Sequence record: PQ666540
Length of the DNA: 64,000 nucleotides
Strand: one strand, 5' to 3'
DNA from: Shigella phage sb2
In this document: piece after piece, positions 27,327-28,175 of the stretch
Position numbering within the stretch: the first letter of the stretch is position 1
How the letters are laid out: the number at the start of each line of letters is the position of its first letter
Position numbers and translations under genes: made by a program
Notes under the pieces: generated by a model
Told to the model about the DNA's origin: nothing
Seen by the model: only the letters and a program-made list of their open reading frames with translations
The model's database searches: none

Positions 27327-28175
27327 TTAATCAACTGCTATTGGATGAATAGCATTAAACTTATGAAATGCTTCTGATTTTTCTTTGCGCGAAACACACA
27401 TGCGAAGAACCTTTAATGGCTCGTCTTCTTCACCCAACGATTTTCTCTTTTCAATATTTGATGTTTTCCAACGAGCTTGATCTGGAAACTCTCTATTGAT
27501 TTGCTCAAGAGCTCTATTATGTTTTGAATTACTACGAATTGAACTACATCCGCCTGGAGCTTGTGCTTTTCCAGATACAACCAGATATTTGAACAAGGCC
27601 AAATGCGGATATCCTTGATTAATTAAATTGAGAAATGCATACATATCTTCGCATAAATCAATTTTTCCATACCCAATTTGTTCTGTTGTAAGTTTTCCAA
27701 GGTCATACCATGTATTCGTGAATCCATATGAATTTTCACGATAATTACCCCAAGATGAAGTAATTTTAAAAATAGGCAGACGAGCATGACCATGATAATA
27801 CCCGCAATCCATGGCATCTTCAACGTATTGAATCAATTCATAGAACTGTTCACGAGTTAACTGATTAATTTTATCTACGCAGCGACGATCATCTTTCTTT
27901 CGCATTGAACTCATACGAATAGTAGTATCATCATCAATCATCCAAATTCGTTGACCTGCATACATTTCAGTAATTGCTTTGCGAGTTCCAGCAATTCCAT
28001 TAACATCATCAGGAATAGTTATAATTTTGGCTCTAGACCCGTAAGCGTCATAATAAGCTTTTTCTTCATGTTCACGTACTACAATATGCGGTTCATAATC
28101 AGATGGAAACATATCAAGGGCAGAAACTGCCCCTACGCGTTGATAGCTTGGAATTACGAATTGAATCATTTCCAC
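27327..28175 (-). CDS. GT-A fold glycosyltransferase, likely beta-glucosyl-HMC alpha-glucosyltransferase (T2/T6 type)
   Basis: 282 aa, DxD-like IWMIDDDT; occupies the locus where T4 has the larger beta-gt. Confidence 0.55.
   Translation of the reverse strand: MEMIQFVIPSYQRVGAVSALDMFPSDYEPHIVVREHEEKAYYDAYGSRAKIITIPDDVNGIAGTRKAITEMYAGQRIWMIDDDTTIRMSSMRKKDDRRCVDKINQLTREQFYELIQYVEDAMDCGYYHGHARLPIFKITSSWGNYRENSYGFTNTWYDLGKLTTEQIGYGKIDLCEDMYAFLNLINQGYPHLALFKYLVVSGKAQAPGGCSSIRSNSKHNRALEQINREFPDQARWKTSNIEKRKSLGEEDEPLKVLRMCVSRKEKSEAFHKFNAIHPIAVD

Follow-up and report, generated by a model that had tools for sequence, protein, structure and literature searches.

Which enzyme occupies the slot between uvsX and gene 42 in Shigella phage sb2 (sequence record PQ666540), and what does it imply for the chemistry of the phage DNA? 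The initial annotation of this locus proposed that a 282-amino-acid (aa) GT-A glycosyltransferase, the beta-glucosyl-HMC-alpha-glucosyltransferase (ba-gt) of T2 and T6, stands where T4 has its 351-aa GT-B beta-glucosyltransferase (beta-gt), and that together with an alpha-glucosyltransferase (alpha-gt) it would produce a gentiobiosyl-type DNA modification. The description of the T4 interval was correct as far as beta-gt is concerned but incomplete, as the T4 annotation also places segA there. Here we follow up this proposal in the window, that is, the whole 64,000-nucleotide (nt) stretch of DNA analysed.

The open reading frame (ORF) listing of the window confirms an ORF in the stated slot. 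The longest version, 27327..28175 on the minus strand, encodes 282 aa from a GTG and is flanked by uvsX (26068..27249) and gene 42 (28166..28906). The length first put forward therefore describes a real ORF, but it probably overstates the protein: the GTG at 28175 lies two codons upstream of an ATG at 28169 and would add two residues. Most probably, translation begins at this ATG and yields 280 aa, because the orthologues of phage pSs-1, T2 and T6 (the latter two in the AP-series records) are annotated from the equivalent codon; the GTG probably reflects only a mechanical choice of the longest ORF. Translation ends at a TAA at 27327-27329. The features of the slot are as follows.

28166..28906, minus strand: gene 42, dCMP hydroxymethylase, 246 aa, intact, with thymidylate-synthase-family matches and the same annotation in relatives.
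28166..28169, minus strand: ATGA, in which the ATG start of ba-gt overlaps the TGA stop of gene 42, read directly in the DNA (…GGTGAGTGGAAATGATTCAA…).
27327..28169, minus strand: coding sequence assigned to ba-gt (also ggt or TAGT), 280 aa from the ATG at 28169, from the ORF list, identity to T2 and T6, PHROG 842 and PF20691.
26068..27249, minus strand: uvsX, the downstream neighbour of ba-gt, syntenic in T4, T2, T6 and pSs-1.

The ATGA overlap suggests that translation of ba-gt is coupled to that of gene 42, whereas in T4 a 23-nt spacer separates gene 42 from beta-gt. A scan of 27000-29400 for promoters and terminators returned counts at the level of shuffled sequence (12 versus 10.6 and 1 versus 1.5, respectively), and we therefore make no regulatory claim. 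On the other side of gene 42, a 49-aa hydrophobic ORF on the minus strand (28914-29063), which is gp57 in pSs-1, fills the interval up to imm; the T4, T2 and T6 records have about 150 bp without annotation there.

Several lines of evidence bear on the identity of the protein. Over 280 aa, it is 97% identical to the T6 enzyme (AP018814) and 98% identical to that of T2 (AP018813), both at the same locus position. A phmmer search matched a protein cluster of 485 members at E 1.4e-187, and PHROG 842, named beta-glucosyl-HMC-alpha-glucosyltransferase, was matched at E 4e-89, both far above chance level. In Pfam, the TET-associated glycosyltransferase family (TAGT, PF20691) scored 39.5 bits against a gathering threshold of 27.5, the match spanning residues 5-209 in the 282-aa ORF and positions 2-205 in the 205-position model; NCBIfam returned no family match for ba-gt or alpha-gt. 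Among 50,697 phage records searched by tblastn, 689 match the protein, about 470 of them at at least 95% identity and the majority annotated as beta-glucosyl-HMC-alpha-glucosyltransferase, and a second tier at 62-66% identity comprises T4-like phages of Klebsiella, Enterobacter and Citrobacter. An exact-sequence look-up turned up no record identical to the 280-aa protein. An exhaustive profile search extended the family to 2265 cluster representatives at E up to 0.001. The best homology is thus to ba-gt itself and not to an unrelated glycosyltransferase family.

The surroundings agree with this assignment. Over 50 kb, the window aligns colinearly with the Tequatrovirus Shigella phage pSs-1 at 97.6% identity, and the genes around ba-gt follow the order seen in T2, T6 and pSs-1. 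Like the T2 and T6 genes, the one in sb2 encodes about 280 aa, sits in the uvsX/gene 42 slot, has an alpha-gt partner and carries DDD and ED motifs; it differs from each by five or six substitutions, with none at family-invariant positions, and S23, E68, K92, I101 and D230 are private to the window against both. We are highly confident that the gene is the T2/T6-type beta-glucosyl-HMC-alpha-glucosyltransferase (ba-gt, ggt or g-gt) of the TAGT family PF20691, as the initial annotation had proposed. The activity that adds the second glucose in T2 and T6 is known from biochemistry of 1960-62, and the enzyme is classified as EC 2.4.1.28. Its gene was reportedly cloned by Winkler and Rueger, in Nucleic Acids Res in 1993.

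To place the gene relative to T4, the window was compared by blastn with NC_000866. Homology stops at 27237, just inside the start of uvsX, and restarts at 28184, near the 3' end of gene 42.

27238..28183, unstranded: segment without DNA homology to T4 (blastn against NC_000866); the T4 counterpart, 23556..25496, holds segA and beta-gt.

In the window, 946 bp thus stand opposite 1941 bp of T4 sequence, within which lie segA and the gene for the 351-aa beta-gt. Searching the whole window by tblastn with T4 beta-gt and segA found nothing (best E for beta-gt, 1.3), and the T4 beta-GT family is absent from the Pfam matches of the window protein. On this comparison, ba-gt reads as a cassette replacement of T4 segA and beta-gt at a fixed slot. 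The two enzymes share the slot, the UDP-glucose donor and a beta linkage on HMC-containing DNA, but they are unrelated in fold and sequence, and the T4 enzyme acts on bare HMC, whereas ba-gt extends alpha-glucosyl-HMC. Also unlike T4, the window has no segA.

The GT-A part of the original proposal was next to consider. The peptide IWMIDDDT, described initially as a DxD-like motif, is present in the ORF, and its acidic residues are strongly conserved in an alignment of 112 of the 2265 cluster representatives (16-64% identity to the query): D80 is invariant, together with R11, D175, G186 and G207, and D79 and D81 are conserved in at least 90% of members, as are I6, P7, R63, L180, G206 and R212.

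27927..27935, minus strand: DDD, residues 79-81, a DxD-type GT-A motif, from the DNA read and conservation in 112 family members.
27645..27650, minus strand: E174-D175, a GT2-like ED motif.

An AlphaFold2 model built from an 11-sequence alignment (pLDDT 77, pTM 0.79, with a low-confidence loop at residues 131-149) predicts a single Rossmann-like nucleotide-sugar-binding domain of GT-A type, in which D79, D80 and D81 come after a strand at E74-77, a DxD-type acidic motif past the fourth beta-strand. Compared with viral models, it is closest to that of a Klebsiella phage PKO111 protein annotated as ba-gt (E 1e-37, TM 0.89); proteins with a TAGT domain come next. In the PDB, which has no solved structure for the family, searches with the protein itself and with the 112-member profile yielded no significant sequence match, and the GT-A assignment therefore rests on the predicted model. 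The best profile match, to the GT2 glucosyltransferase 9jma, is weak and non-significant (E 0.11); it pairs IPSYxR, DDD and ED with classical GT2 motifs, DDD standing opposite LDDDD. Taken together, the model points to a GT-A, GT2-like fold for ba-gt. The model, the blastn break at 27238..28183 and the lack of a T4 beta-gt in the window all support the proposed replacement of beta-gt by a GT-A glycosyltransferase.

By the same reasoning, the DDD motif is presumed to bind a divalent metal and the UDP diphosphate, and D175, from its conservation and the non-significant GT2 alignment, is a candidate catalytic base of an inverting transfer. A GT2-like inverting enzyme would be expected to make a beta linkage from UDP-alpha-glucose. 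GT2-like GT-A enzymes of solved structure (WrtF 9omh, BcsA 9fmv, TarP 6h1j and AvpGT 9jma) are only 9-15% identical to the window protein, without a significant sequence match, and they act on lipid, polysaccharide or teichoic acid, whereas the acceptor of ba-gt would be a glucosylated base in duplex DNA.

The proposed modification also requires a partner that adds the first glucose. The initial annotation had pointed to 39308-40510, and the gene found there is intact.

39308..40510, minus strand: alpha-gt, DNA alpha-glucosyltransferase, 400 aa, intact, matching T4 AGT (PDB 1xv5/1y6f).

The match to T4 AGT is end to end (residues 1-400, E 2.9e-255, 849.8 bits). In the predicted pathway, 5-hydroxymethylcytosine (HMC) supplied through gene 42, whose enzyme makes hydroxymethyl-dCMP, would be replicated into the phage DNA, and alpha-GT would then place an alpha-linked glucose on the hydroxymethyl group to give alpha-glucosyl-HMC, the acceptor of ba-gt. 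Finally, ba-gt would add a second glucose from UDP-glucose, beta-1,6 to the first, to yield gentiobiosyl-HMC. The chemistry is likely to be inverting and metal-dependent, with DDD (79-81) holding the metal and UDP, and D175 acting as the base. This transfer from UDP-glucose onto alpha-glucosyl-HMC is known for T6 and relatives and is predicted for sb2. The window itself provides the orthology, family membership, modelled fold, conserved motifs, synteny and intact partner genes; for the gene product and the defence-evasion phenotype we rely on published work on the T6 orthologue (97% identical), and it is from the genes and this orthologue that we infer gentiobiose in the DNA of sb2 itself. With both partners intact and the chemistry published for T6 and field isolates, the pairing proposed at the outset is supported as a prediction of gentiobiosyl-type modification.

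Could the sb2 enzyme instead use another acceptor or sugar, for example bare HMC or a sugar other than glucose? The TAGT family is large and diverse, as its 2265 cluster representatives attest, and its specificities must vary, since many phages have a solitary TAGT without alpha-GT or beta-GT (PMC13216743). The window enzyme shares with the family R11, the DDD motif, ED175 and a GG(C)S..R motif, but differs from it in route: here dCMP hydroxymethylase, instead of a TET dioxygenase that works on 5mC within DNA, provides the acceptor hydroxymethyl, and the new sugar goes onto one that the base already carries, not onto the hydroxymethyl group of the base. However, the protein is 97-98% identical to the T2 and T6 enzymes and its gene shares its neighbours and alpha-gt partner with theirs, which makes a change very unlikely, and we consider a different specificity in sb2 extremely improbable.

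Recent work places the preferred reading, a T2/T6-type ba-gt, on well-trodden ground. The T2/T6 enzyme is the TAGT of PF20691, with an AF3 model of GT-A fold, sister to GT2 (PMC13216743, NAR 2026); according to the same study, most phage genomes with these glucosyltransferases pair alpha-GT or beta-GT with a TAGT, and the alpha-plus-beta pairing of T4 occurs in only 6 of 753 genomes. Ten Tequatrovirus isolates that encode alpha-GT and a TAGT like T6, the TAGT being syntenic with T4 beta-gt, contain alpha-5-gentiobiosylmethyl-dC, detected by LC-MS (PMC13390438, AEM 2026). Publications of 2024-2026 thus already cover the GT-A fold, the exchange with beta-gt and the nucleoside measurements, and the gene has long been annotated in T-even genomes. 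A ba-gt in this place is well characterized, already known and ordinary, with hundreds of sequenced T4-like phages having it there.

How much gentiobiose such a gene produces is a separate matter. The gentiobiosyl share is about 5% in T2 and about 72% in T6, with nearly identical enzymes (PMC13390438, PMC11078745 and a 2026 preprint), and it ranged from roughly 40% to two-thirds in all ten field isolates (PMC13390438). The presence of ba-gt indicates capability, not extent, and the amount is not predictable from sequence, because near-identical enzymes give such different values in T2 and T6. At the five positions that differ between the two (11, 40, 55, 106 and 251), the window matches T2 at 40, 55 and 106 and T6 at 11 and 251. 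This mixed pattern and the 98% identity to the T2 enzyme would fit a T2-like low output, with a few percent gentiobiosyl, DNA that is mostly mono-alpha-glucosylated and T2-like behaviour towards Brig1 and other defences. We regard this as unlikely, as the ten isolates make T2 the outlier and the limiting factor in T2 may lie outside ba-gt. A high gentiobiosyl level in sb2 DNA is the better guess, because the measured field isolates all have 40% or more. It is also conceivable, although we think it rather doubtful, that a few allele substitutions in ba-gt set a T2-like (about 5%) or T6-like (about 70%) output, such that a mixed allele would fall at an unpredicted point between them; if so, the sensitivity of sb2 to glycosylase- and GmrSD-type defences would be altered.

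The T6 records themselves vary at this gene. In AP018814 (L001, 4135-4974), one GAT of the GATGATGAT tract, which encodes DDD, is lost, giving 279 aa; in MH550421 (L007, 4138-4980), there is an in-frame stop at codon 10, and the gene is annotated from Met20 with 261 aa. Laboratory stocks of T6 may differ in ba-gt, because these two records disagree there, and for the same reason the 'DD' allele is unsafe as proof that the third Asp is dispensable.

Mapping the pSs-1 genes onto the window revealed in-frame stop codons elsewhere. Gene 43 (DNA polymerase; minus strand, 29880..32576), a single frame of 898 codons, has TAA at codons 197 and 203 (31968-31970 and 31986-31988), both of which are GAA (Glu) in T4, T2, T6 and pSs-1. 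Among the 501 records that match this site, the best agree with the window at 98.8% of 161 bases; their two mismatches equal in number the changes that create the stops. Gene 56 (dCTPase; minus strand, 21089..21607) reads TAA TAA at codons 151 and 152 of 172 (21152-21157), where pSs-1 has GAA GAA; the check is weak here, since identity reaches only 95% in the closest of the 336 records that match. The two stops would cut short the dCTPase, which acts upstream in the modification pathway by keeping phage DNA free of cytosine. In imm (29060..29311), codon 35 is TAA (29207-29209) and TCA in T4, T2, T6 and pSs-1, so the stop is private to the window. A 442-codon gene at 187..1515 ('DNA topoisomerase II' in pSs-1) has TAA at codon 407 (295-297), where pSs-1, the one relative used for this comparison, has GAA. 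Each of the six TAA codons arises by a G:C to T:A change, and none of the 501, 336 and 429 phage records matching the sites in gene 43, gene 56 and imm, respectively, is identical there.

Further differences from pSs-1 include TGA stops in two small genes, at codon 99 of 105 (49320-49322) and codon 10 of 128 (60348-60350), frameshifting length differences in two genes (56390-57125 and 62921-63261) and, in the first gene (41-190), ATT in place of the ATG start; some of these TGA stops, frameshifts and the start loss may be natural variation in accessory genes. Overall, 943 of 1198 substitutions relative to pSs-1 are transitions, an ordinary spectrum, and the private ones are likewise mostly transitions. 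A base-calling or damage artefact at modified cytosines was considered as the source of the stops; because of this spectrum, a general error process is not supported. The 64,000-nt window contains no tRNA genes, and hence no phage-encoded suppressor tRNA, although the T4 tRNA cluster would presumably fall outside it. The only exact match to the 196-aa N-terminal gp43 fragment was on a 944-bp contig that ends within the gene and is thus uninformative on the stop.

If the recorded sequence is accepted at face value, the phage could neither replicate nor keep cytosine out of its DNA in a host that lacks suppressors. Possible causes of the stops are a laboratory or engineered mutant, local sequence errors and record edits. 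One might then argue from the private stops in gene 43 (two), gene 56 (two), imm and the topoisomerase subunit, without an identical sequence among the matching records, that PQ666540 is a defective, engineered or error-laden genome in which ba-gt is irrelevant and no modification prediction holds. We find this very improbable: ba-gt, gene 42 and alpha-gt are full length, ba-gt keeps every family-invariant residue, and the other private differences are mostly ordinary transitions, such that the stops look like a few local events, not general decay.

For a functional ba-gt in sb2, the consequences can be read from its relatives. When ba-gt was deleted in T6, purified Brig1, which spares wild-type T6 DNA, degraded the DNA of the mutant, and the mutant phage was more sensitive to Brig1 (PMC11078745, Nature 2024). 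A 2026 preprint used a T6 delta-g-gt mutant likewise with the BapA glucosidase, which does not strip gentiobiosyl-HMC. Because gentiobiosyl-HMC resists both Brig1 and BapA, and its loss in the T6 deletion increases sensitivity to Brig1, the presence of ba-gt is a useful predictor of the DNA chemistry and defence-evasion profile of T4-like phages.
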